From: an uncultured Pseudomonadales bacterium
GTDB taxonomy: Bacteria > Patescibacteriota > Microgenomatia > UBA1400 > PJMF01
Assembly: GCA_964432115.1 (NCBI GenBank)
Contig: CAYSMC010000033.1
Location: 1,123 to 65,122, forward strand
DNA length: 64,000 nt
Reading direction: 5' to 3'
Shown here piece after piece: positions 8,531-62,702 of this stretch. The notes under the pieces are model-generated. The model made no database searches. It was not told the DNA's origin and saw nothing but the letters and a program-made list of their open reading frames with translations. The position numbers were made by a program, and so were the translations under genes. Within the stretch, counting starts at the first letter, position 1. Each line of letters begins with the position of its first letter.

Positions 8531-8585
8531 GCTATTTTCATTCTTGAGCTTTGTGAGAGACTAACTTATATTGCAATATCTGAGT

Positions 8586-9914
8586 ATGTCAAAAAAGAAA
8601 TCCATTTTTATTGTTGTCGTTATTTTTTCTTTAGTTGTGGGTTTGACTGTGGGCCTGTTAATCAGTCATTATCGTGAGCAAATTCCCTTTATTAAAAATT
8701 TAATCAATAAACAATCAGTTAATGAGGAGAGCGAAAACACTTATTTAGCTTTTTTACAAGAGATTCGAGAAATAATTTTTGAAAATTATTGGGACAAAAT
8801 AAATGAGGCTCAATTTATTAAATTACATGTTTTAGCTATTGAAAAACTAACTGGAACTACTTTGGGTGATGGAATAGAAAATTATGAAGATTTAGACCAA
8901 AAAATTCTTGATCTATTAAATGAATATCAAGAAGAAGAGCTTAAACAAGATTTTACTGCCCAATTAGCAGATCTGGTTTTGACTAATTTAGAACCTTTTG
9001 GTCGGAGCCGACTTTATTCTCAGCAACTTGAGCAAGAATTAGTTGAGCGCGTAAGCAATATTGATCCTGAAGCTGATCATTACCAAGCTTTAGGTGTAGA
9101 AAAGAATGCATCGAGCGAAGAGATTAATCAGGCTTATGAGGAACAGCAGGAGATTTTGATAGAAGATGATGGTGAGGAGGCTCGAGCCAAACTAGCAGTC
9201 ATCCAACAAGCTCATAAAACTTTAGCTGATGAAGCTAATAGAAATCGTTATGATGAGGCAGGAGTTAATCCGACCATGGAGTGGCGTTTATTAAGTCCCG
9301 AAGTTTTCTATTTACATATAAAACAATTTTCTCCAAATACTGTTCAAGAACTTTTAGAGGTAACACAAAAAGTCGATGATCGGAGTGAAGAATTAGATTC
9401 TCTAATTTTAGATTTGAGAGCCAATGTTGGTGGGGCTATTGATGGTTTGCCATATTTTTTGGGTCCGTTTATAGGTCCAAACCAATATGCCTATCAATTT
9501 CTTCAACAGGGAGAGATTACTGATTACAAAACACGTAGTGACTGGTTGCCTTCTCTCATGCGCTATAAAAAAGTAGCAGTCCTAATTGACGATCAAGTGC
9601 AATCGACCGCAGAGGTAATGGCCAGTGTTTTAAAAAAATACAATGTCGGGGTATTGATCGGCAGCACTACTATGGGTTGGGGTACTGTAGAACGAGTGTT
9701 TCCTATCGAAAGGCAAATTAGTGACAGCAAACAATATTCGGTTTTTCTAGTGCATCATTTAACTTTACGTGAAGATGGGGTGGTAATTGAAGGTAATGGA
9801 GTTAATCCCATGATTAATGTTAAAGACGTTGGTTGGCAAAGACAGTTGGAGAGATATTTTGGTGATTCAGCTATTGTGCCGGCAATTATGGAACAATTTG
9901 CCGTTCAGGAATAA
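8586..9914 (+). CDS. S41-family C-terminal processing peptidase (Ctp/Tsp-like) with an embedded J-like domain
   Basis: N-terminal TM anchor. S41 motifs LILDLRANVGG and AEVMASVL...GSTTMGWGT. Residues around DHYQALGVEKNASSEEINQAYEE...RYDEAG align to the DnaJ J-domain but have IED where the HPD motif should be. Confidence 0.65.
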   Translation: MSKKKSIFIVVVIFSLVVGLTVGLLISHYREQIPFIKNLINKQSVNEESENTYLAFLQEIREIIFENYWDKINEAQFIKLHVLAIEKLTGTTLGDGIENYEDLDQKILDLLNEYQEEELKQDFTAQLADLVLTNLEPFGRSRLYSQQLEQELVERVSNIDPEADHYQALGVEKNASSEEINQAYEEQQEILIEDDGEEARAKLAVIQQAHKTLADEANRNRYDEAGVNPTMEWRLLSPEVFYLHIKQFSPNTVQELLEVTQKVDDRSEELDSLILDLRANVGGAIDGLPYFLGPFIGPNQYAYQFLQQGEITDYKTRSDWLPSLMRYKKVAVLIDDQVQSTAEVMASVLKKYNVGVLIGSTTMGWGTVERVFPIERQISDSKQYSVFLVHHLTLREDGVVIEGNGVNPMINVKDVGWQRQLERYFGDSAIVPAIMEQFAVQE

Positions 9915-31599: not shown

Positions 31600-32807
31600 G
31601 TGTCTGATTTTACAGAACCGCTAGCTTCAATTTTGCGCCCCAAGAATTTAGATGAATTTGTTGGTCAAAATCATTTGGTGGGTCAAGGTAAACCTCTAAG
31701 CGCCATGATTGCTTTGGGCGCACCTTTTTCTTTAATTTTTTGGGGACCTCCTGGAGTTGGTAAAACCACTTTGGCTAAAATTATTGCTAGGGAAACGGGT
31801 CGTTCATTTATCGAATTATCTGCTGTTTCTGCCAGCAAAGCTGATGTTAAAAAAGTGCTGGATCAAACAAGAGAACAAAAGACTTTATTAGAATCTTACC
31901 AAGCACCAGTTCTTTTTTTAGATGAGATTCATCGCTTTAATAAAGCTCAACAAGATTTTTTATTGCCCAGTGTGGAAAGTGGCCAAATAGTATTAATTGG
32001 TGCCACCACGGAGAATCCGTCCTTTGAAGTGATTGCTCCTTTATTATCCAGAATGAGAGTGTTTGTTTTACATCCCCTCAAAAATGAAGAACTAGTTTTA
32101 ATCATTGATAAAGCACTCAAACTTTTAAAAATAAAAAAAATTGCCAAGTCAAGTCAAGAGTTTTTATTAAACTATGCCGATGGTGATGCTCGTAAATTAT
32201 TAACCATCATCGATAATGCTTACGCTCTTTATGGGGATTTAAAATTAACTTCACTAAAAAATGCTTTGCAGTCTAAGCAAATTCTTTACGATAAAAAAGG
32301 CGACGAACACTACAACATTATTAGTGCTTTTATTAAAAGCTTACGAGCTAGCGATGTCGATGCAGCCTTATATTATTTAGCCAGAATGGTCAAGGCTGGA
32401 GAAGATCCTAAATTTATTGCCAGGAGAATGGTGATTTTTGCTAGTGAAGACGTGGGTATGGCTCAACCAACAGCTTTGGTAGTGGCTAATGAAGTGTTCG
32501 AAGCAGTGATGAAAATTGGTTATCCAGAAGCCCAAATTAGTTTGGCTCACGGCGTGGTTTATTTAGCTTTAGCTAAAAAGATCGCAGTGCTTATGATGCT
32601 TATTTCAAAGCGCTGGCAGATGTAGAAAAATATGGCAATTTGTCCATCCCGTTTAAATTGCGCAATGCGCCCACAAAATTAATGAAAAATTTAAAATATG
32701 GTGAAGGCTATGTTATGTATAAACCAGGAAAAGATCAAAGAGAAGAAAGTTATTTACCCGATAAAATTAAAGGAAAAAGATATTATCAAAGTAAATCGAA
32801 AGGTTAA
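31600..32807 (+). pseudogene. rarA: replication-associated recombination protein A (RarA/MgsA AAA+ ATPase), disrupted by a 1-nt frameshift in a poly-A tract near 32575-32580
   Basis: Frame 1 (31600..32625) gives the AAA+ domain (FWGPPGVGKTTLAKIIA...AHGVVYLALAKK). Continuing in the 0 frame gives the conserved C-terminus ([45 protein letters not shown]...[12 protein letters not shown]) to TAA at 32805-32807. Adding one A to the AAAAA run restores one ORF. Confidence 0.7.
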
Positions 32808-32808
32808 A

Positions 32809-33546
32809 ATGTCTGATCAAAATTTACAAAATTGTTGTTTAAACTGTCAATGCCAGGTTTGTAAGCATTCTGCTGGTAATGGTGCGAATAGCGTTTCAAG
32901 CTTTCCCCTAATTGGTGATAAGTTTCCTGATTTAGAAGCTCATAGCACTCATGGTCGTTTATCTTTCCCCAAAGATTTAATGGGCAAATGGACAGTGTTG
33001 TTTAGTCATCCAGCAGATTTTACTCCGGTCTGTACCACTGAATTTGTATCTTTTGCTAAATACGCTCCCCAATTTAAAAAAATTAATACTCAGCTAATAG
33101 GTCTATCAATTGATCAAGTTTTTTCTCACATTAAATGGGTGGAATGGATCCAGGAAAATTTAGATATTAAGATTCCCTTTCCTATCATTTCAGATAATAC
33201 TGGTCGAGTGGGCAAGCGCCTCGGCATGATTCATGAAAAACAAGGGACAGATACAGTGCGAGCAGTATTTGTGATGGACGACAAAGCAGTTATTCGTTTG
33301 ATTCTCTATTATCCTCAAGAAGTGGGACGCAACATGGCAGAAATTTTGCGGGCAGTTAAGGCCCTGCAGTTTTCCACCGCTAATAAAGTAGCGATGCCGG
33401 CCAACTGGCCTGAAAACGAATTGGTAGGTGATCATGTTATTGTGCCACCAGCTAAGACTGAAGTTGAGGCCAAAGCCAGAGCGGGTAAAAGAGATTGTTA
33501 TGATTGGTGGTTTTGTCATAAAAAGGTAGTAGCCAAGAAAAAATAA
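32809..33546 (+). CDS. 1-Cys peroxiredoxin (Prx6-like) with a Cys-rich N-terminal extension
   Basis: Peroxidatic motif FTPVCTTE in a thioredoxin fold. The roughly 30-aa N-terminal tag is [23 protein letters not shown]. The start is chosen right after the rarA stop; the upstream start at 32698 would overlap the rarA C-terminus. Confidence 0.85.
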
Positions 33547-33595: not shown

Positions 33596-33669
33596 GCGCC
33601 CATAGCTCAGCTGGATAGAGCGTTTGTTTGCGGAACAAAAGGCCAGAGGTTCGAATCCCCTTGGGCGCA
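33596..33669 (+). tRNA. tRNA-Arg, anticodon loop reads UU-GCG-GA (anticodon GCG)
   Basis: Hand-folded cloverleaf: acceptor GCGCCCA/TGGGCGC, D-arm GCTC/GAGC with A20, anticodon stem TTTGT/ACAAA, T-arm with TTCGAAT loop, discriminator A73, and no encoded CCA. Confidence 0.7.
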
Positions 33670-33758
33670 CAGTTTATTTCATAATTTGCTAATTTAGTTT
33701 CAACTATGTAATTTTTAATAAAATGGTTTTTTTAATTAAGCTGGGTTAAAATAGACAA

Positions 33759-33956
33759 ATGACACCCAGAGAACATAATGATTCTTTTTTAGCTGGTCTT
33801 TTACGAAAAAAAGCCGCAGTAGAAGAAATAGAAAATGAAACTGGAGCTAATGTAAATTCAGCCCTTAAGGAAGTTGATCGGCAAATTAGTCAGTGCTTAT
33901 CTGGTGGTAACCCGATTAAAGGTAAAGGAGTGACTAAATCTGGAGAGTTAGATTAA
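33759..33956 (+). CDS. hypothetical small protein (65 aa) between two tRNA genes
   Basis: ORF only, with no homology recognised. It may be spurious. Confidence 0.25.
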   Translation: MTPREHNDSFLAGLLRKKAAVEEIENETGANVNSALKEVDRQISQCLSGGNPIKGKGVTKSGELD

Positions 33957-33961
33957 AGCTA

Positions 33962-34045
33962 GGAAGGGTCGCATAGTGGCTATTGCATCAGCCTCGAAAA
34001 CTGACGCCTTTTTGGGCATCGCGGGTTCGAGTCCCGCCCCTTCCG
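33962..34045 (+). tRNA. tRNA-Ser (anticodon CGA), type II with long variable arm
   Basis: Acceptor GGAAGGG/CCCTTCC, 3-bp D-stem, anticodon loop CT-CGA-AA, long variable arm, T-loop TTCGAGT, and G73. Confidence 0.7.
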
Positions 34046-34055
34046 CTCTAACTTT

Positions 34056-34721
34056 ATGAAAAAATTAATTATCTCAGACACCCATCTTTCCAGATTTAAT
34101 AAAAAACAATTTAGTTTTTTGCGTGATTTAATTAAATCTGTAGATGAGGTGATTATTAATGGTGACTTTTGGGATAGTTGGTGTATCTCTTTTGAAAAAT
34201 TTGTCAATTCAAAGTGGCAACAATTATTTGATTTACTGCTTGAAAAAAACACTATTTATATTTATGGCAATCACGATCCTAAACACTTGTGTGATGAGCG
34301 TTGCTCATTATTTGCTGTGAAAACTTGTAATAGTTATCAATTTGAATTATTGGGTCAAAAATTTCATTGTGAACATGGTCATCATTTAATGACTCATTTT
34401 AACATGAGTAACTTTATTAATATTTATTATAAATTACTACATCGTCAACCCAAAGTACTTTGTTATTTAATTGCTGAATTTGAGCGCCTACTTTTTTATG
34501 TGTTTCCCAACACCAACAGGCACTCCAAAGTTGGTCAGCACACTAATCAAATTCTTAGAAAAAATTTGCACCATAAATATATTAATATTTATGGTCACTC
34601 TCACTGTGCAGATTTAGATTTGGAGAATAATTTTGTTAATAGTGGTTCTATTATGTGTAAAAATGCGAGTTATGTATTGATTGATAATAAAAAAATTAGA
34701 TTAGAACGCATGAGATATTAA
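34056..34721 (+). CDS. metallophosphoesterase (calcineurin-like MPP superfamily)
   Basis: MPP motifs ISDTHL, INGDFWD, GNHD and GHSH. Confidence 0.7.
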   Translation: MKKLIISDTHLSRFNKKQFSFLRDLIKSVDEVIINGDFWDSWCISFEKFVNSKWQQLFDLLLEKNTIYIYGNHDPKHLCDERCSLFAVKTCNSYQFELLGQKFHCEHGHHLMTHFNMSNFINIYYKLLHRQPKVLCYLIAEFERLLFYVFPNTNRHSKVGQHTNQILRKNLHHKYINIYGHSHCADLDLENNFVNSGSIMCKNASYVLIDNKKIRLERMRY

Positions 34722-34745
34722 TTTTTTTCCGCTATAATTCTATTT

Positions 34746-35552
34746 ATGAAAAGTAGACAAAAAAAATTAGGTTTAGCTCTTGGTGGTGGTGGTTGGCGAG
34801 GCTTAGCTCACATCGGGGTCATTAAAGAATTATTAAAAAACGAAATTGAAATTAGTTATATTGCTGGTAGCAGTGCTGGAGCGTTAGTGGGTGGGATGTA
34901 TGCTGCTTTTCAAGATATTGACAAAGTAGAAGCCATATTTCGTGAAAACATGAATTATCGCCGCCTACTTTATGCTTTTTCTGATCCCAAACCAAAGTGG
35001 GGCATTTTTGCTGGGGATAAGATGCAGGATCTTTTTGAAAAATATTTAGGTAAACGTCAAATTGAAGATTTAAAAATCCCCTTTTGTGCTTTGGCTTGTG
35101 ACTTATTGACTGGTCAAGCGGTAGAGTTGCATAGAGGTAAATTAAGCAAAGCCATTCATGCCAGTATATCTGTACCATTTTTCTTAAAACCAGTTAAGTG
35201 GGGCAAGATGCGCTTGATTGATGGTGCGGCGGCTGTGCCCATACCAGTTAAAACAGTTAAACAAATGGGAGCTGAAATAGTGATTGCCGTTAATTTGCAA
35301 AAAAATCATTTTCCAATGATCGACCACAAAATTTCTGCTTTTAAAACTGCTTTAAAAACCTCTCAAGTGATGCTTTATCATTTGGCGGAATATAATCAAG
35401 AATCAGCCGATTTAGTGTTGTTGCCTGATATAGATGAAAATGGCGATTATAAAAATCCATTTTTAGGATTTGTCAAACGCGGTGATGTTTTTATTGATGG
35501 TGAAGAGGTGGTTAAAGAGAATATTGAAGAGATAAAAAAATTATTGTTTTAA
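34746..35552 (+). CDS. patatin-like phospholipase
   Basis: Oxyanion-hole motif GGGGWRG, nucleophile elbow GSSAG, and catalytic Asp in DGAAA. Confidence 0.85.
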   Translation: MKSRQKKLGLALGGGGWRGLAHIGVIKELLKNEIEISYIAGSSAGALVGGMYAAFQDIDKVEAIFRENMNYRRLLYAFSDPKPKWGIFAGDKMQDLFEKYLGKRQIEDLKIPFCALACDLLTGQAVELHRGKLSKAIHASISVPFFLKPVKWGKMRLIDGAAAVPIPVKTVKQMGAEIVIAVNLQKNHFPMIDHKISAFKTALKTSQVMLYHLAEYNQESADLVLLPDIDENGDYKNPFLGFVKRGDVFIDGEEVVKENIEEIKKLLF

Positions 35553-35577
35553 ATAAATTATAAAAAAGTTAAAAAAA

Positions 35578-36315
35578 ATGACTCAAATTACCAAAAAAAT
35601 TATTTTAACCATTAAAAAATCGGCAAATTCCCACAAGGCTCAACATTTTCAGCGTTTTTTTAAAACTGGAGTTGGAGAATATGGTGAAGGAGATTTGTTT
35701 TTAGGTTTAACTGTTCCAGAACAAAGATTGATTGTCAAAAAATTTGCTGATCAAATTGTTCTTGAGGATTTAGCTATTTTAATTGTTAGTCCATATCATG
35801 AAATTCGTTTAGTTTCATTATTATTATTGGTTGAACTTTTTCAACAAGCTCGTGATCAGAAAGAAAAAAAACAATTAGTTGACTTTTATTTAGCTCATTC
35901 TACTTATATTAATAATTGGGATTTGGCTGATTTGTCTGCATATAAAATTGTGGGCCAGTATTTATTTGAAATAAATCAGGAAAAAAATTCTCAAAAAACT
36001 CCAAAGGTATTAATTAAACTAGCAAGATCAAGTTTGCTATGGGATAGGCGCATTGCAATATTATCTACTTTTCCTTTTGTCAAAGCTGGACAATTTTTAC
36101 CCACTTTAGAATTAGCCAAAATCTTAATTAATGATCAAGAAGATTTAATGTACAAGGCGGTTGGTTGGTTATTGCGAGAAGTTGGCAAGCAAGACGAAAA
36201 AATCTTAACTGATTTTTTAGATCAATATACTTTGCAAATGCCTCGCACTATGTTGCGTTACGCCATTGAAAAATTTCCTGATGAAAAGAGGCAATCTTAT
36301 TTAAAGAAAAACTAA
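35578..36315 (+). CDS. DNA alkylation repair protein (AlkD/AlkC-like HEAT-repeat glycosylase family)
   Basis: All-alpha HEAT-like repeats with the family N-terminal pattern (FQRFFKTGVGEYGEGDLFLGLTVPEQR) and WDxxD (NWDLADL). Confidence 0.75.
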   Translation: MTQITKKIILTIKKSANSHKAQHFQRFFKTGVGEYGEGDLFLGLTVPEQRLIVKKFADQIVLEDLAILIVSPYHEIRLVSLLLLVELFQQARDQKEKKQLVDFYLAHSTYINNWDLADLSAYKIVGQYLFEINQEKNSQKTPKVLIKLARSSLLWDRRIAILSTFPFVKAGQFLPTLELAKILINDQEDLMYKAVGWLLREVGKQDEKILTDFLDQYTLQMPRTMLRYAIEKFPDEKRQSYLKKN

Positions 36316-36548
36316 TTAGGTCGATGAAAATAAAAAGTCGTGTTTTGCTGCGGTATGTTTTTTATTGAAAATCTTTTGGCAAAATCTGTTGTTAATTCAG
36401 GGATAAGGACTTGAATTGCTCCAGGTAAATATTCGAGCACTATTGCTTGCAAATTTTTTTTAGCGATATAGTAATCATCATCTTCATGAAGTCCTTGATT
36501 AAGCATGCTGCCAGCCGGAATAAGAATTTTCTCCTGATTTTTTCCCAT
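36312..36548 (-). CDS. hypothetical small protein (78 aa)
   Basis: ORF convergent with and overlapping the alkD-like stop. No homology recognised. Confidence 0.3.
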   Translation of the reverse strand: MGKNQEKILIPAGSMLNQGLHEDDDYYIAKKNLQAIVLEYLPGAIQVLIPELTTDFAKRFSIKNIPQQNTTFYFHRPN

Positions 36549-36664
36549 ATTTTATTATATCAATTAATATCAAATTTTGTAAGAAACAATAAAATTAATT
36601 TATTTTTTTTATCTACTTAAGGCTTTTAGCTTAAGGAAAAAACGCTATAATAAGACATCTTTAA

Positions 36665-36747
36665 GGAGGTGTCGCATAGCGGTCAATTGCACACGCTTGG
36701 AAAGCGTGAGCCTCGCGGCTTCAAGGGTTCGAATCCCTTCACCTCCG
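36665..36747 (+). tRNA. tRNA-Ser (anticodon GGA), type II
   Basis: Acceptor GGAGGTG/CACCTCC, anticodon stem CACGC/GCGTG, loop TT-GGA-AA, long variable arm, T-loop TTCGAAT, and G73. A TATAAT box lies about 20 nt upstream. Confidence 0.75.
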
Positions 36748-36826
36748 CAGTCAAGAATAAATAAAGTGAATTCTTGACTCGTACCCGAATGGTACACTGC
36801 CGATTAGTAATATTATTGGATTAATT

Positions 36827-58115: not shown

Positions 58116-58202
58116 GAAAACAATCAACACAGTAAGTATGAATTAACATAATTCTTATTATAATTGACTTTTCTCAATAAAAAGTATATTTTACAGCTAA
58201 AG

Positions 58203-60020
58203 ATGTCGCAAATACAAGAGGTTAAAGACGCGAATAATATTGTTGAGATTGTTGGCGAAAAAATTGATTTAAAGCCCTCAGGTGGTAGTTTTAAGGCTCG
58301 TTGCCCTTTTCACAGTGAAAAGACTCCTTCCTTTTTTGTTCACCCAGAAATGCAACGCTATCGTTGTTTTGGTTGTGGTGCTACGGGTGATGTTTTAGAT
58401 TTTTTACAAAATTATGATGGGATGACTTTTTATGAAGCCCTAAGGTACTTGGCCGATCGCGCCTCGATTACTTTAAAAGATTTTAGTCGGACCAATGAAG
58501 ATGAAGAGCGAGAACAATTATTGGGTATTTTAAATTTGGCCAAAGAATATTATCACTATTTGCTAACTAAGCACGAAGCCGGTCAAGAAGCTTTAGCTTA
58601 CTTAAAAAAACGAGGAACTAACAGTCAGTCAATTAAACTATTTTATTTGGGTTATTCTTTACAAAGTTGGGATGGTTTAATCAAGTATTTGCATCAAAAA
58701 AAGAAATACCCTTTAGAATTAATTGCCAAAACTGGCCTAATTATTCAGGGTAAAGGTGGTCGTTATTATGATCGTTTTCGAGGACGACTCATGTTTCCCT
58801 TAAAAAATCATCGAGGTCAAGTGGTGGGTTTTTCTGGACGACTGTTGGATGCTCAGGCAAAAGAAGCTAAATATATTAATAGTCCAGAGACCAGTTTATA
58901 TCATAAATCAAAATTACTCTATGGTTACAGTGAATTATTTAGGGAAATTAGGAAAACTGATAAAGTGGTGGTGGTAGAGGGTGAATTTGATGTTATTTCT
59001 TCTGCTCAAGCTCATGTCAATAATGTAGTAGCAATCAAAGGTAGTGCCTTAACCAGCGATCAAATAGAATTACTAGCTAGAGTGGCCCAGACGGTGATTT
59101 TGGCCTTTGACCAAGATGAAGCGGGGATAACAGCTTGTAAAAGAGCAATTACTTTAATCAAAGATAAGGATTTAGATTTACGGGTTATTGATTTTCAATT
59201 TTTAAACAATTTAGCAAAATCCAAAGATCTCAAAGATCCAGACGATTTTGCTCGACAAGAGCCAAAATTATGGCGGCAAGCTGTTGACGAAGCGATTTCT
59301 ATTTATAGTTTTTTACTCAACATCGCTTTGGCTAGTCATGATGCTGATAGTCCAGATGGAAAACGAAAAATTATTGACGATTTAGCTCCCGTTATCGATG
59401 GCATTAATCATCTAGTAGAGAAAGAATTTTATTTACAAAAATTAGCAGAAAAATTAAATGTTAAATTGGATTTAATTAAAGAGGATGTGGCTCGAGTTGC
59501 TCAACGAAAAAATGCAAAAACGGGCTTGGTTAAAAAGAAAAAAGTTGTTGACAACAATTCTAAGCAGAGTAAGAGTCACCAACAAATTATGGAAGAATAC
59601 TTATTGTTTTTACTTTTCCAGCTTGAAGAAAAAACATTTATTAAAGAAGTCAAAGAGATCTCATTATTAAATTGGCAAACTCCAGGTTTGAGTAATATTG
59701 TTGAATTGCTCGCTCAGCAACTAAAAAATTTTGACTTAGAAAAATTTAGCAAAAAACTGGCTGAGGATTTAAAAGAAAAGCTTATGGAATTGTTACTTAA
59801 TCCAGAATTTCAAAAAAATATTAAAAATGTTAAATTGGAAAAAGAGTGGCGGATCATTTTAGCTCAAGTTAAGAAAAATATAGTTCACGCTGAAATTGAG
59901 GAAATTAACCAAGAAATTAAAGAATTGGATAAGAAAAATAAAAAAACTAGTAGTGAAGAATTACGCTTAGATGAACTATTAGAGCAAATTGTTAAGAAAC
60001 AAAATCAATTAAAAAGTTGA
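58203..60020 (+). CDS. dnaG: DNA primase
   Basis: CHC2 zinc finger (CPFHSEKTPSFFV...YRCFGCG), RNA-polymerase domain and Toprim (VVVVEGEFDVIS...DQDEAG). Start chosen at the ATG preceded by an RBS rather than 58164. Confidence 0.85.
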   Translation: MSQIQEVKDANNIVEIVGEKIDLKPSGGSFKARCPFHSEKTPSFFVHPEMQRYRCFGCGATGDVLDFLQNYDGMTFYEALRYLADRASITLKDFSRTNEDEEREQLLGILNLAKEYYHYLLTKHEAGQEALAYLKKRGTNSQSIKLFYLGYSLQSWDGLIKYLHQKKKYPLELIAKTGLIIQGKGGRYYDRFRGRLMFPLKNHRGQVVGFSGRLLDAQAKEAKYINSPETSLYHKSKLLYGYSELFREIRKTDKVVVVEGEFDVISSAQAHVNNVVAIKGSALTSDQIELLARVAQTVILAFDQDEAGITACKRAITLIKDKDLDLRVIDFQFLNNLAKSKDLKDPDDFARQEPKLWRQAVDEAISIYSFLLNIALASHDADSPDGKRKIIDDLAPVIDGINHLVEKEFYLQKLAEKLNVKLDLIKEDVARVAQRKNAKTGLVKKKKVVDNNSKQSKSHQQIMEEYLLFLLFQLEEKTFIKEVKEISLLNWQTPGLSNIVELLAQQLKNFDLEKFSKKLAEDLKEKLMELLLNPEFQKNIKNVKLEKEWRIILAQVKKNIVHAEIEEINQEIKELDKKNKKTSSEELRLDELLEQIVKKQNQLKS

Positions 60021-60057
60021 AATACTCAAGTAATTTGCTTCTTGCCAAGATACCCCC

Positions 60058-60339
60058 ATGGGGTATAATAAAAATATGGATTTTGCAAAAAAGAAACTTA
60101 GTTTAACTAGTGAAGATAAAACAATTACCCAACTCAAACGCATTCGTGGTCAAGTTGACGGTTTGATTCGGATGTATCAAAACGAAAGATCTTGTGTCGA
60201 AATAGCGCACCAAATCACAGCAGCTCGCAATTCGCTGTCGCGAGTTGCTCGCGATGTCTTGACTAACGCCGCTAATCACTGTATTAAAGAAAAAGATCAA
60301 AGCCAATTAAATTCAATTTTAAAAGAATTATTAAAGTAA
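60058..60339 (+). CDS. CsoR/RcnR/FrmR-family (DUF156) metal- or thiol-sensing transcriptional repressor
   Basis: LKRIRGQVDGLIRMY...CVEIAHQITAARNSLSRVARDVLTNAANHCI follows the CsoR-family helix bundle with the conserved Cys (RSCVE) and His/Cys (NHC) sensing positions. Confidence 0.7.
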   Translation: MGYNKNMDFAKKKLSLTSEDKTITQLKRIRGQVDGLIRMYQNERSCVEIAHQITAARNSLSRVARDVLTNAANHCIKEKDQSQLNSILKELLK

Positions 60340-60360
60340 TAAATAGATAGAAAGGTGTCT

Positions 60361-60699
60361 ATGCCAGCACAACATTTAGATAGTAGTAATTTTCAAGCCA
60401 CGCTAGACAGCGCGTCAACACCAGTTTTAGTTGATTTTTTTGCAGAATGGTGTGGCCCGTGTCAGATGGCTGCGCCAATAATTGATAAATTGGCCGATGA
60501 TTACAAAGATAAAATGATTATTGCTAAACTTAATGTCGATGAAGCACAGGATGTGGCAATGCAATTTAACGTGATGAATATTCCTACTGTTATTGTTCTC
60601 AAGAAAGACGATGATGGTAAAATGGTGGAGTTTGATCGCAAAATTGGTTTCCCAGGAGAAAGTGGTTACCAAAAAATGATTGATGAAGCGCTTGCTTAG
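60361..60699 (+). CDS. trxA: thioredoxin
   Basis: WCGPCQ active site in a thioredoxin fold. ATG with RBS AAAGG upstream. Confidence 0.85.
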   Translation: MPAQHLDSSNFQATLDSASTPVLVDFFAEWCGPCQMAAPIIDKLADDYKDKMIIAKLNVDEAQDVAMQFNVMNIPTVIVLKKDDDGKMVEFDRKIGFPGESGYQKMIDEALA

Positions 60700-60740
60700 A
60701 TCGATCAATTTGTTTAAATTATTAGTTAATTGGAAAGAGT

Positions 60741-61817
60741 ATGCAAAATTTAACAGTGGCTATTATTGGTTCAGGACCAGCCGGTCTGACAGCAGGAATT
60801 TATTTGGGTCGAGCTTTATTAAAACCCACCTTGTTTAGTGGCTTGAATATTGGTGGTCAGTTAATGTTTACTCGCGATGTTGAAAATTTTCCTGGTTTTC
60901 CAGATGGAATGCGTGGTCCAGAATTTATGATGAATTTAAAAAAACAAGCAACTAAATTTGATACAGAAATTCATCATGAGCAAATCACGGCCGTGGATTT
61001 TAATCAAGAACCTTTTCGCTTGTGGACTTCTTTACCAAACAACATGGAGTTTAAGGATCTACAAGATTTATCAAAGCAAGAACTGTTAAAAGTCACTGAA
61101 TTAATTAAAAAAAATCAGGAAGCAGATTATAGTGCTCGTAGTGTATTGATTACTACTGGAGCTGAACACATTAAACTTGCTGTTCCTGGAGAAAAAGAAT
61201 TTTTGGGTAAGGGTGTGGGTTTTTGTGCGGTTTGTGATGGAGCTTTTTATCGAAATAAAAAAGTATTTGTAGTGGGTGGAGGTGATACTGCTTTGGGTGA
61301 TGCCTTAGTGTTGAGTAAATTCACCGACCAAGTATTTATTATTCATCGTCGAGATCAATTTCGTGCTAGTAAAATTTTGCAAAAGCAAGTTTTAGCTGAT
61401 GAAAAATTTAAAATTTTATGGAATACAGAAGTTAAAGAGATAATTGGTGATAAACAGCGAATTACTGCTTTAAAACTTGCGCGAGAAGGAAAAGAGGAAA
61501 AAGTTGTTGCTGATGGAATATTTGTTGCTATTGGTTATAATCCCAACAGCACTTTGTTTACAAATCAGCTAAAAATGGATGATCATGCTTATATTATGAC
61601 TAGGCAATTTGGTAGTGAAATAGCTGTCAAGGAATTAATTCAAGACCATGAAGAAAGTTCAGCTAATTATTTTCCAACAATGACTTCGGTGCCTGGGGTA
61701 TTTGCCGCGGGTGATATAACCGATAGTCGTTATCATCAGGCAATAGTTGCAGCGGGTTCTGGAGCAATGGCTGCTATCGACGTTGAACGCTGGTTGGAAA
61801 TGATCAATGACGGTTAA
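60741..61817 (+). CDS. trxB: thioredoxin-disulfide reductase (with a roughly 35-aa lineage-specific insert)
   Basis: FAD motif IIGSGPAGLTAGIY, redox-active CAVC, NADPH motif VVGGGDTALGDA, and C-terminal FAAGDITD. Confidence 0.85.
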   Translation: MQNLTVAIIGSGPAGLTAGIYLGRALLKPTLFSGLNIGGQLMFTRDVENFPGFPDGMRGPEFMMNLKKQATKFDTEIHHEQITAVDFNQEPFRLWTSLPNNMEFKDLQDLSKQELLKVTELIKKNQEADYSARSVLITTGAEHIKLAVPGEKEFLGKGVGFCAVCDGAFYRNKKVFVVGGGDTALGDALVLSKFTDQVFIIHRRDQFRASKILQKQVLADEKFKILWNTEVKEIIGDKQRITALKLAREGKEEKVVADGIFVAIGYNPNSTLFTNQLKMDDHAYIMTRQFGSEIAVKELIQDHEESSANYFPTMTSVPGVFAAGDITDSRYHQAIVAAGSGAMAAIDVERWLEMINDG

Positions 61818-61826
61818 AAAATATGC

Positions 61827-62702
61827 TTATTGTTGCTCGATAAATTTTTTAATTTCCTGCCACATGATTTCATCATCTCTAGCAACAGTCAGATTGGCCA
61901 GCAACCAACCCAAAGGATAACCGCCATCGAGATATTCTCCCTGAGGTTGGTGAATGACTACTTTTTCAGTCAGAGCAAGTTGGTTAACAGTATCGGTAAT
62001 ATACAGCTCTCCAGATTGAGGATTGGTTTGTTGCACATCGATTAAATCAAAAACTGATTGAGGTAGAATGTATTTACTGATGTTAGCGAGATTAGATGGA
62101 GCAGTACCCGGTTTAGGTTTTTCAATTAAAGCTTGTAAATAACGAAAGTTATTTTCTTGAGCTAGTTGTGTTACTCCATAGCGATGCAGTGATTCATCTG
62201 GTTTTTCAATGCAGGTGACCAAACCGCTAGCTCCAGATTTTTCATAGGTATCGATCATAGCTGCCACTTCGCTTCGACCATTGTGGTTATAAATAAAGTC
62301 ATCACCCATTAAAACCAAAAATGCTGCTTCATCTTTTAAATATTCTTTGGCTAATTGGACAGGAACAGCAGTGCCATAATCGTCGGCATCACTTTGCCTA
62401 ATAAAATGAAAATTAGCTTTTTGATGAATATTTTTGATTGAGTCATAAAGTTCTAATTTATTATTTTTTTTCAGATATTGATATAGTCTTTGATTTTCTC
62501 GATAATAATGCAGGACTTGGTAGTTATGTTCACTGATGACAAAAATAATATCGCTAATGCCAGCCTTGATACAGTCTTCTACCACGTAGTCGATAAGTGG
62601 TCGATCTAAAATAGGTAGCATCTCTTTTTGAATAGTTTTACTGATGGGTAAAAATCTGGTGCCAAAACCAGCTGAAGTAATGACTGCTTTATTAATTTTC
62701 AT
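61827..62702 (-). CDS. galU: UTP--glucose-1-phosphate uridylyltransferase
   Basis: KAVITSAGFGTRFLPISKTIQKEMLPI N-terminal motif and the rest of the nucleotidyltransferase fold. Confidence 0.85.
   Translation of the reverse strand: MKINKAVITSAGFGTRFLPISKTIQKEMLPILDRPLIDYVVEDCIKAGISDIIFVISEHNYQVLHYYRENQRLYQYLKKNNKLELYDSIKNIHQKANFHFIRQSDADDYGTAVPVQLAKEYLKDEAAFLVLMGDDFIYNHNGRSEVAAMIDTYEKSGASGLVTCIEKPDESLHRYGVTQLAQENNFRYLQALIEKPKPGTAPSNLANISKYILPQSVFDLIDVQQTNPQSGELYITDTVNQLALTEKVVIHQPQGEYLDGGYPLGWLLANLTVARDDEIMWQEIKKFIEQQ

Follow-up and report, generated by a model that had tools for sequence, protein, structure and literature searches.

A CsoR-family regulator with a predicted dithiol sensor site heads a conserved thioredoxin/thioredoxin reductase gene module in Patescibacteria

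What signal could place the thioredoxin system of a bacterium under the command of a small repressor from a family better known for its metal, formaldehyde and persulfide sensors? The question is raised by a cluster close to the end of a 64,000-nucleotide stretch of DNA (the window, by which we mean the whole stretch analyzed; GenBank assembly GCA_964432115.1, contig CAYSMC010000033.1, positions 1,123 to 65,122), titled as an uncultured Pseudomonadales bacterium and placed by GTDB in the Patescibacteriota, in which three head-to-tail, + strand open reading frames (ORFs) correspond to a PF02583 gene of the CsoR/RcnR family, a thioredoxin gene (trxA) and a thioredoxin reductase gene (trxB). A reading made from the sequence alone (hereafter, the sequence-only reading) had proposed that the first gene encodes a sensor of thiol, persulfide or metal stress in control of the other two. 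The analysis reported here lends good support to a real, conserved regulatory module, the regulator of which is predicted to be a CstR-like sensor built on a pair of cysteines and to act at a palindromic operator in the promoter of its own operon.

The three genes were assigned from model matches and active-site motifs. The regulator ORF, listed at 60058-60339, matched PF02583 (Trns_repr_metal) with 70.9 bits (cutoff 22.8, E = 1.2e-19). The second gene, trxA (60361-60699, + strand), encodes a thioredoxin of 112 amino acid residues (aa) matching PF00085 (92 bits) and TIGR01068 (103.5 bits, cutoff 96.8), with a WCGPC active site at 60448-60462. The 358-aa product of the third, trxB (60741-61817, + strand), scored 337.2 bits against TIGR01292, just below the cutoff of 343.45 because insertions, one of them of ~30 residues, split the hidden Markov model match. 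Its motifs are CAVC at residue 162 (61224-61235), GSGPAG, GGGDTA and the NADPH-type HRRDQFR. Each of its 40 best PDB matches is an entry deposited under the name thioredoxin reductase (lowest E 2.9e-76); by these motifs and matches the third gene is an NADPH-type, low-Mr thioredoxin reductase. The claim that a CsoR-family regulator heads trxA-trxB is thus borne out by the PF02583, TrxA and TrxB matches, together with the order shared by relatives that is described below. Compared to solved thioredoxin reductases, TrxB harbors insertions of ~30 residues (~95-125) and ~15 residues (~293-308); its length is ~355-370 aa in most relatives and 329-337 aa in the most distant ones (loci L068 and L069).

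If the regulator controls this cluster, a binding site should be recognizable in front of it, and the sequence-only reading had suggested looking there for a palindromic operator. A perfect palindrome was found in the cluster's only good promoter. The promoter scan returned TTGCCA-16-TATAAT (60042-60069, + strand) as the best site in 59800-62100, with 11 of 12 consensus matches, the -35 hexamer TTGCCA lying at 60042-60047 and the -10 hexamer TATAAT at 60064-60069. The palindrome ATACCCC-CAT-GGGGTAT (60050-60066, strandless; 7-nt arms, 100% complementary) sits in the spacer between them and runs into the -10 box, the start of which it overlaps. No other exact copy occurs within the window, and 15 of its 17 positions are identical to ATACCCTTATGGGGTAT, the S. 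mitis cst operator core employed in CstR binding assays (PMC8643695). By sequence and placement, 60050-60066 is a predicted operator of the classic CsoR/CstR type. Three other candidates were discarded. A lone second operator-like site in the window (9638-9654, ATACAATGTCGGGGTAT; three mismatches) falls within the ORF at 8571-9914 and is no better than chance, since at least two matches were obtained in 18 of 100 shuffles. An internal palindrome with 7-nt arms within the regulator gene (TCGCGAG/CTCGCGA, 60238-60254) was likewise attributed to chance, relatives using other synonymous codons such that the DNA is not conserved, and the other inverted repeats in 60098-60184 are imperfect and unsupported.

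The position of the operator bears directly on where the regulator gene begins. The sequence-only reading had it start at the ATG at 60058, which we rejected: this codon cannot be the start because it lies inside the palindrome, at its center, and upstream of the -10 box. Nor is the codon conserved, relatives having CATAG at that point; all close homologues have been assigned lengths of 86-88 aa, starting at an ATG equivalent to 60076. Judged from these homologue starts, the regulator gene begins at ATG 60076, extends over 60076-60339 on the + strand and encodes 87 aa. Because ATG 60076 follows the -10 box by only 6 nt, with no Shine-Dalgarno sequence preceding it, the regulator-trxA-trxB mRNA is probably leaderless; in relatives, the ATG is found exactly 6 nt from the -10 box in 21 loci and at 5-11 nt in most. 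The start of trxA is probably ATG 60361, since a Shine-Dalgarno sequence, GAAAGG, was identified by inspection at 60350-60355 (+ strand) and homologues of 111-112 aa have an equivalent ATG. In contrast to the regulator gene, trxA of relatives shows a clear upstream Shine-Dalgarno sequence of the AAAGG/AAGGAG type. The 15-nt distance earlier given between regulator and trxA had been counted from GTG 60355 and becomes 21 nt when counted from ATG 60361. The Shine-Dalgarno sequence is the sole feature of this gap; that between trxA and trxB measures 41 nt and carries, by inspection, the Shine-Dalgarno-like GGAAAGAG at 60732-60739 (+ strand).

Taken together, the promoter, operator and spacing are consistent with a three-gene operon, regulator-trxA-trxB, which is probably transcribed from one strong promoter of the sigma-70 type, the spacer of which contains the predicted operator of the regulator itself. 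No + strand terminator was found in 59800-62100, and the consensus scan revealed no promoter-like site between 60069 and 60596. The alternative is that the regulator autoregulates or sets a basal level only, trxA-trxB being expressed mainly from a separate, constitutive promoter located within or downstream of the regulator gene, so that the adjacency reflects synteny with no regulatory meaning; autoregulation combined with a constitutive trxAB promoter was the case that the sequence-only reading had named as overturning its proposal. The thioredoxin system is usually housekeeping, weak promoters can hide in AT-rich coding sequence, a few relatives have long and structured spacers between regulator and trxA, and a weak promoter-like site (9 of 12 matches) is present within trxA at 60596-60623. 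Against this, the gap of 21 nt (10-60 nt in most relatives) holds a Shine-Dalgarno sequence only, the interval 60069-60596 is devoid of promoter-like sites in the consensus scan, and the count for the region is at the level of shuffled sequence (7 found, 8.8 expected). Furthermore, the linkage is kept down to 38% regulator identity and across changes of flanking genes, unlike neutral synteny. We consider a separate constitutive promoter very improbable.

Conservation across relatives argues in the same direction. One genome per GTDB species was scanned, yielding 55 loci, the gene order of which was checked by tblastn. Regulator, trxA and trxB followed one another in the same order and on the same strand in 53 of the 55; the remaining two are cut off by the contig end within or shortly past the regulator, and hence all 53 assessable loci share the arrangement. 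The same order was seen in each of seven initial metagenome context look-ups (regulator identity 54-74%), even where the flanks differed. Operators were counted in 61 non-redundant upstream regions using the strict motif TACCC-N3-7-GGGTA and, as background, 367 kb of locus DNA, the scans spanning 64 kb of the source genome and 4-8 kb per relative. The strict motif was present upstream of the regulator in 57 of the 61 loci (all 61 when one mismatch was tolerated), with no occurrence of the strict motif elsewhere in the 367 kb of locus DNA. It was always located between the -35 and -10 boxes, in upstream regions that are otherwise divergent; of 62 loci, 38 have a perfect TTGACA as the -35 box and 60 a spacer of 16-18 nt, and the -10 hexamer is TATATT or TATAAT. 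Because gene order and operator recur in every assessable related locus, their association is, by these comparisons, beyond chance.

More distant members retain the linkage. A HMMER search of 1.84 billion representatives returned 5,546 PF02583-like proteins, the scores of which drop steadily from 145 to ~75 bits over the first ~35 representatives and then plateau at ~60-70 bits. Members taken from the declining stretch of this list, scoring 94.6, 92.5, 77.9 and 74.1 bits, all precede trxA, with trxB directly after in three of the four, and two of these proteins, when compared with that of the window, were 46% and 38% identical to it. The operators of the distant members occupy the same position and vary in sequence: ATACT-G7/C7-AGTAT in L068 and L069, ATACTCCCCCCTAGTAT in L071 and ATACCCCACGGGGGTAT in L072. 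The sites lie at ~3940-3960 in L068, ~795-815 in L069 and ~235-255 in L071, on contigs of 38-48% G+C (the window has ~35%). A profile search of a 5.8-billion-protein set gave only close members among the matches listed, and the contig of member P0174, 595 bp long, offers no gene context. The loci display a synteny like that of the candidate phyla radiation (CPR) and are mostly labelled Patescibacteria; the nearest proteins are metagenomic, and those few that carry a name belong to 'Candidatus Pacebacteria' or 'Woesebacteria' (CPR/Patescibacteria). Many CPR-syntenic contigs (L015-L067; P0054) are titled 'uncultured Pseudomonadales', 'Vitreimonas sp.' or 'Limisphaerales', some with isolate names containing 'PATE', and these non-CPR titles are probably taxonomy-label errors.

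Surroundings and spacers were also compared. In the window, dnaG (58164-60020, same strand) is the upstream neighbor and a convergent sugar-nucleotidyl (NTP-)transferase ORF (61827-62702) the downstream one, the operon ending against 61827. The position of dnaG, directly upstream of the regulator and on the same strand, is shared by 38 of 49 species loci; a functional link is not obvious. Downstream of trxB, and on the same strand, malic enzyme and/or glutamate dehydrogenase (GDH) genes occur in ~37 of 50 related species loci (L007, 5727-8228; L012, 5746-8249; L072, 3025-4341; also across L019-L067), the gaps from trxB narrowing to 1-3 nt (1 nt in L072). The operon may thus include, in many relatives, suppliers of reducing equivalents, their cofactor use being putative. 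The subclade of the window (L001-L006 and L013-L018) has no adjacent malic enzyme or GDH gene, and neither was found in the 64-kb window. Spacers of 58-190 nt with stable hairpins separate regulator and trxA in L010, L012, L019 (-49.7 kcal/mol) and L037; the hairpins could be attenuators or inserted repeat elements. In L027, L029, L034 and L039, the operator is followed by TATGCTTGACA, a second TTGACA placed directly downstream, and the start codon is further off, which suggests tandem promoters or a shifted promoter. Within the window, CxxC motifs are confined to TrxA, TrxB, the DnaG zinc finger and the ORF at 32698-33546 (57 non-overlapping ORFs of at least 90 aa considered), and an Rfam scan detected no riboswitch or leader at the locus, its sole matches being three distant tRNA genes at 33596-36748 (Arg-GCG, Ser-CGA and Ser-GGA).

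What the regulator may sense was approached through its residues. Inducers in this family are read from a W-X-Y-Z fingerprint, which is x-C-H-C for the Cu(I) sensor CsoR, H-C-H-H for the Ni/Co sensor RcnR, P-C-H-x for the formaldehyde sensor FrmR, and x-C-N-C or x-C-x-C for the persulfide sensor CstR (PMC8643695, PMC11672702). Alignment to solved structures, as the sequence-only reading had advised for CstR, CsoR and FrmR, places Cys40 (codon 60193-60195, + strand) at X, Cys69 (codon 60280-60282, + strand) at Z and Ala65, four residues before Z, at Y, giving x-C-A-C. Across 141 aligned family members, both cysteines are invariant (141 of 141), 127 members have exactly two cysteines, Glu occupies Y in 110, Ala in 28 and His in none, and 97 are devoid of any His. 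Residue 2 is Asp in the window protein and Pro in seven members, the N-terminus varying in length and sequence. Thus, of the conserved Cys in RSCVE and the His-Cys in NHC to which attention had been drawn, both strings are present and both cysteines hold; the histidine was rejected as a ligand, being kept in 9 of 141 members and adjoining Z rather than occupying Y.

None of the metal or formaldehyde fingerprints was found in the regulator. The Cu(I)-type x-C-H-C is precluded by Ala at Y; P-C-H-x is absent and the FrmR model scored 31 bits (cutoff 133); neither H-C-H-H nor the H-C-H-C of RcnR/InrS is seen, the RcnR model scoring 29 bits (cutoff 138). Judged from these residues, Cu, Ni/Co and FrmR-type formaldehyde chemistry is excluded, because histidine is never found at Y and is lacking altogether from 97 of 141 members, and because the defining fingerprints are missing. 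Of the signals earlier entertained, metals and formaldehyde are consequently abandoned, and a thiol- or persulfide-type signal is the one that fits the sensor residues. Current labels such as 'metal-sensitive/copper-sensing repressor' or 'FrmR family' are misleading for these genes.

A metal could still be bound by the two thiolates alone, Cu(I) or another thiophilic metal then being the signal and thioredoxin and its reductase repairing metal-caused thiol damage. The name of the Pfam family refers to metal sensing, the Cu sensor RicR is the best partial NCBIfam match, and CstR-type dithiol sites bind Cu(I) in vitro (PMC8643695). The RicR match, however, reaches 42.5 bits for a cutoff of 175, the Y histidine is wanting throughout the family, and no copA, copZ or metal exporter gene lies beside the regulator in the window or in the gene-called related loci. 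Moreover, Cu(I) drives no dissociation where the Y histidine is absent, and CstR with Cu(I) bound stays on its DNA (PMC8643695). Natural variants are also informative: in P0156, P0157 and P0165 (50%-cluster representatives), the X cysteine is missing and a second cysteine is found five residues past Z (RC-x4-C, e.g. RCADQQC), and P0157 (L072, 1314-1553) still heads a tightly packed trxA-trxB-gdh cluster behind the same operator. Such a shift of the pair would destroy a fixed metal site; by sequence, the relocated pair fits a thiol switch better. Sensing of a metal through the thiolates is therefore highly improbable.

The same residues speak to a regulator that responds to nothing at all, an autorepressor without ligand that would buffer the dosage of the operon by negative feedback on itself, its cysteines being structural. 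Since the regulator gene opens the operon that it would repress, homeostasis of this kind is possible without a signal. Yet both cysteines are invariant and stand exactly at the inducer-recognition positions of the family, their relocation in the variants is compensatory, and the CsoR-family repressors covered by a recent review include no signal-blind member (PMC11672702). We hold this explanation to be very doubtful.

The dithiol site instead points toward CstR. The regulator displays the x-C-x-C fingerprint, its cysteine pair aligns with that of S. pneumoniae CstR (SpCstR), and it is predicted to be a CstR-like x-C-x-C dithiol sensor; the wedge Asn at Y that defines x-C-N-C (PMC11672702) is replaced by Ala or Glu. 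The AlphaFold2 model (mean predicted local distance difference test score 84.5) consists of helices at residues 7-35, 40-72 and 76-85, Cys40 starting the second helix and Cys69 lying near its end. All of the top 18 Foldseek matches in the PDB are CsoR-family proteins, which confirms the fold and does not discriminate CstR from CsoR. Among PDB sequences, SpCstR (7MQ1-3) was the best match with 45 bits, followed by Geobacillus CsoR (40 bits), InrS (39 bits) and M. tuberculosis CsoR (38 bits). Because the score of SpCstR is barely above those of the Cu and Ni sensors, present sequence evidence does not place the regulator within a known CstR cluster.

A true CstR would be specific for persulfides and other reactive sulfur species (RSS), with no response to general oxidants in vivo, and would induce thioredoxin and thioredoxin reductase as a depersulfidase in sulfidic, anoxic habitats. 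This explanation can draw on the fingerprint, on SpCstR being the closest solved relative, on the operator that is nearly that of the S. mitis cst core (15 of 17 positions), and on surveys of 2021 and 2024 that class all x-C-x-C clusters as candidate persulfide sensors (PMC8643695, PMC11672702). In addition, the cluster of the CstR-like YrkD in Bacillus licheniformis holds the thioredoxin-like gene ydfQ, and thioredoxin is cited as reducing persulfide to H2S (PMC9918477); several isolate names of relatives (e.g. Go_SlDig) hint at an origin from anaerobic digesters or sludge, as far as can be inferred from names. Set against these points is the absence, beside the regulator at gene-called loci, of rhodanese, persulfide dioxygenase (PDO/CstB), sulfide:quinone oxidoreductase (SQR), CoA-persulfide reductase and TauE genes, the very sulfur neighbors that support CstR assignments in the literature. 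Rather than a sulfide/RSS detoxification neighborhood, these loci show trxA, trxB, malic enzyme, GDH and dnaG. The replacement of the wedge Asn of characterized CstRs by Glu or Ala and the small lead of SpCstR over Cu and Ni sensors also argue against a true CstR, which we regard as unlikely but deserving of serious weight.

The reading that we prefer is a homeostat responding to general thiol oxidation, or disulfide stress. Under this scheme, the thiol-reduced CsoR-fold protein (a tetramer by family precedent) would bind ATACCCCCATGGGGTAT, cover the spacer between the -35 and -10 boxes together with part of the -10 box, and thereby block RNA polymerase. Cys40 and Cys69, the only cysteines of the protein, would face each other across the subunit interface of the family dimer, and oxidation of the pair to a disulfide or, with sulfane sulfur, to a longer bridge would free the repressor from DNA. 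The leaderless regulator-trxA-trxB transcript would then be produced, and the additional thioredoxin and thioredoxin reductase would restore cell thiols. They would probably also return the repressor to its reduced form, so that the circuit closes as negative feedback and the module acts as a homeostat of the thiol redox state in organisms relying on the thioredoxin system. DNA binding with repression, cysteine oxidation as the signal, the identity of the oxidant and re-reduction by thioredoxin are the parts that we infer. The chemistry has precedent, in that persulfides, tetrathionate and H2O2 are all reactive toward the dithiol pairs of CstR, and crosslinked CstR no longer binds DNA until a reductant reverses the reaction (PMC8643695).

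These components differ in strength. That the whole operon is repressed through the operator at 60050-60066 is very likely, and perception of the signal via the cysteine pair is likely too, if less firmly so. Given sensing by the pair, the chances that the signal is general thiol/disulfide stress rather than strictly persulfides are slightly better than even; as a complete proposal, the general thiol-oxidation homeostat comes a little short of an even chance. It is preferred because no gene-called locus has sulfur-detoxification neighbors, because the regulon is the universal disulfide reductase system, and because malic enzyme and/or GDH often follow, suggesting that a supply of reducing equivalents is co-expressed.

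Several points count against the homeostat. In S. aureus cells, H2O2 fails to induce CstR, even though the two react in vitro (PMC8643695). Because of this discrepancy, a two-cysteine CsoR protein can be more selective in vivo than its chemistry implies. The long hairpin spacers of L010, L012, L019 and L037 could uncouple the regulator from trxA, and a promoter within the AT-rich regulator gene may be compatible with the consensus scans. Since thioredoxin normally performs housekeeping duties, for instance in serving ribonucleotide reductase, tight repression of the system would be implausible, and the operator may only trim expression. Finally, with operator scans that covered 64 kb of the genome and ~6 kb per relative, the regulon seen amounts to one operon.

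If the homeostat is nonetheless taken further, the clade might constitute a fifth class of the CsoR superfamily, after the Cu, Ni/Co, formaldehyde and persulfide sensors: a dedicated thiol-redox repressor that would read the redox state of the thioredoxin pool, be reset by TrxA and TrxB, and serve as the principal, perhaps the only, oxidative-stress regulator of a large CPR/Patescibacteria lineage, NAD(P)H-producing dehydrogenases having been recruited in many members. We offer this wider proposal tentatively, as possible and more doubtful than the homeostat itself. The searchable full-text literature (subscription-only papers lying outside its scope) yielded no account of trxA-trxB being regulated by a CsoR-family protein, nor of such a module in CPR bacteria; the main text of the 2021 superfamily survey never mentions thioredoxin (PMC8643695), and the 2024 review lists Cu, Ni/Co, formaldehyde and persulfide sensors only (PMC11672702). 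The earlier remark that this operon layout is not a common one accordingly holds for that literature and fails within the CPR lineage, where every one of the 53 assessable species loci is arranged in this way.

For the CsoR superfamily, a clade with the thioredoxin system as its only conserved target would mean an additional physiological output and perhaps an additional signal, and its natural variants, with Ala or Glu at the wedge position or with a moved cysteine pair, provide material to study the oxidant specificity of dithiol sites. To our knowledge, no regulator has been experimentally characterized in CPR/Patescibacteria, which are largely uncultured; the module points to the thioredoxin system, often accompanied by malic enzyme and/or GDH, as a regulated redox defense in these bacteria. 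With an 87-aa protein, a 17-bp operator and a single promoter, it is also portable and could be tested in vitro or in E. coli.

How does the module compare with known systems? CstR of S. aureus, E. faecalis and S. pneumoniae/S. mitis shares with the regulator the fold, the size, the X and Z cysteines without a Y histidine and a near-identical operator core (ATACCC..GGGGTAT), and the expected action, release of DNA upon oxidative crosslinking of the cysteine pair, would be the same by analogy. The CstR regulon, in contrast, consists of rhodaneses, persulfide dioxygenase, SQR and CoA-persulfide reductase, whereas here it would comprise trxA-trxB, joined in many relatives by malic enzyme and/or GDH. 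Identity to CstR is only ~35-39%, the window regulator being no closer to CstR than to Cu and Ni sensors; here the operon that it would control begins with the regulator gene itself, on an mRNA that is probably leaderless; and CstR is found in Firmicutes, this regulator in CPR/Patescibacteria. The Cu(I)-sensing CsoR proteins of M. tuberculosis, B. subtilis, Geobacillus and Streptomyces lividans have in common with it the PF02583 fold, both cysteines and a palindromic, GC-tract operator overlapping the promoter. Geobacillus CsoR even shares the string 'ANHC', but has its ligand histidine four residues earlier; the Y position that is His in these sensors is Ala here and Glu in most relatives, and no copZ/copA neighbor is present here.

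The only precedent found for a CsoR-family repressor cluster with a thioredoxin-like gene is the YrkD cluster of Bacillus licheniformis (PMC9918477). There, ydfQ is one of 11 genes, mostly for sulfur trafficking and sulfide oxidation, with no thioredoxin reductase among them, whereas here thioredoxin and its reductase make up the regulon. Thiol-stress circuits that induce thioredoxin and are reset by it are well established elsewhere, namely Streptomyces SigR-RsrA with trxBA, mycobacterial SigH-RshA, Spx in B. subtilis and OxyR in E. coli. Their shared logic is one in which an oxidized cysteine sensor leads to the induction of thioredoxin, which in turn re-reduces the sensor. The proteins involved are unrelated to the present one (an anti-sigma factor, an ArsC-like binder of RNA polymerase and a LysR-type activator) and command large regulons; the module described here would, by contrast, combine a one-protein repressor with a single operator, the predicted sensor being encoded on the same transcript as its targets.

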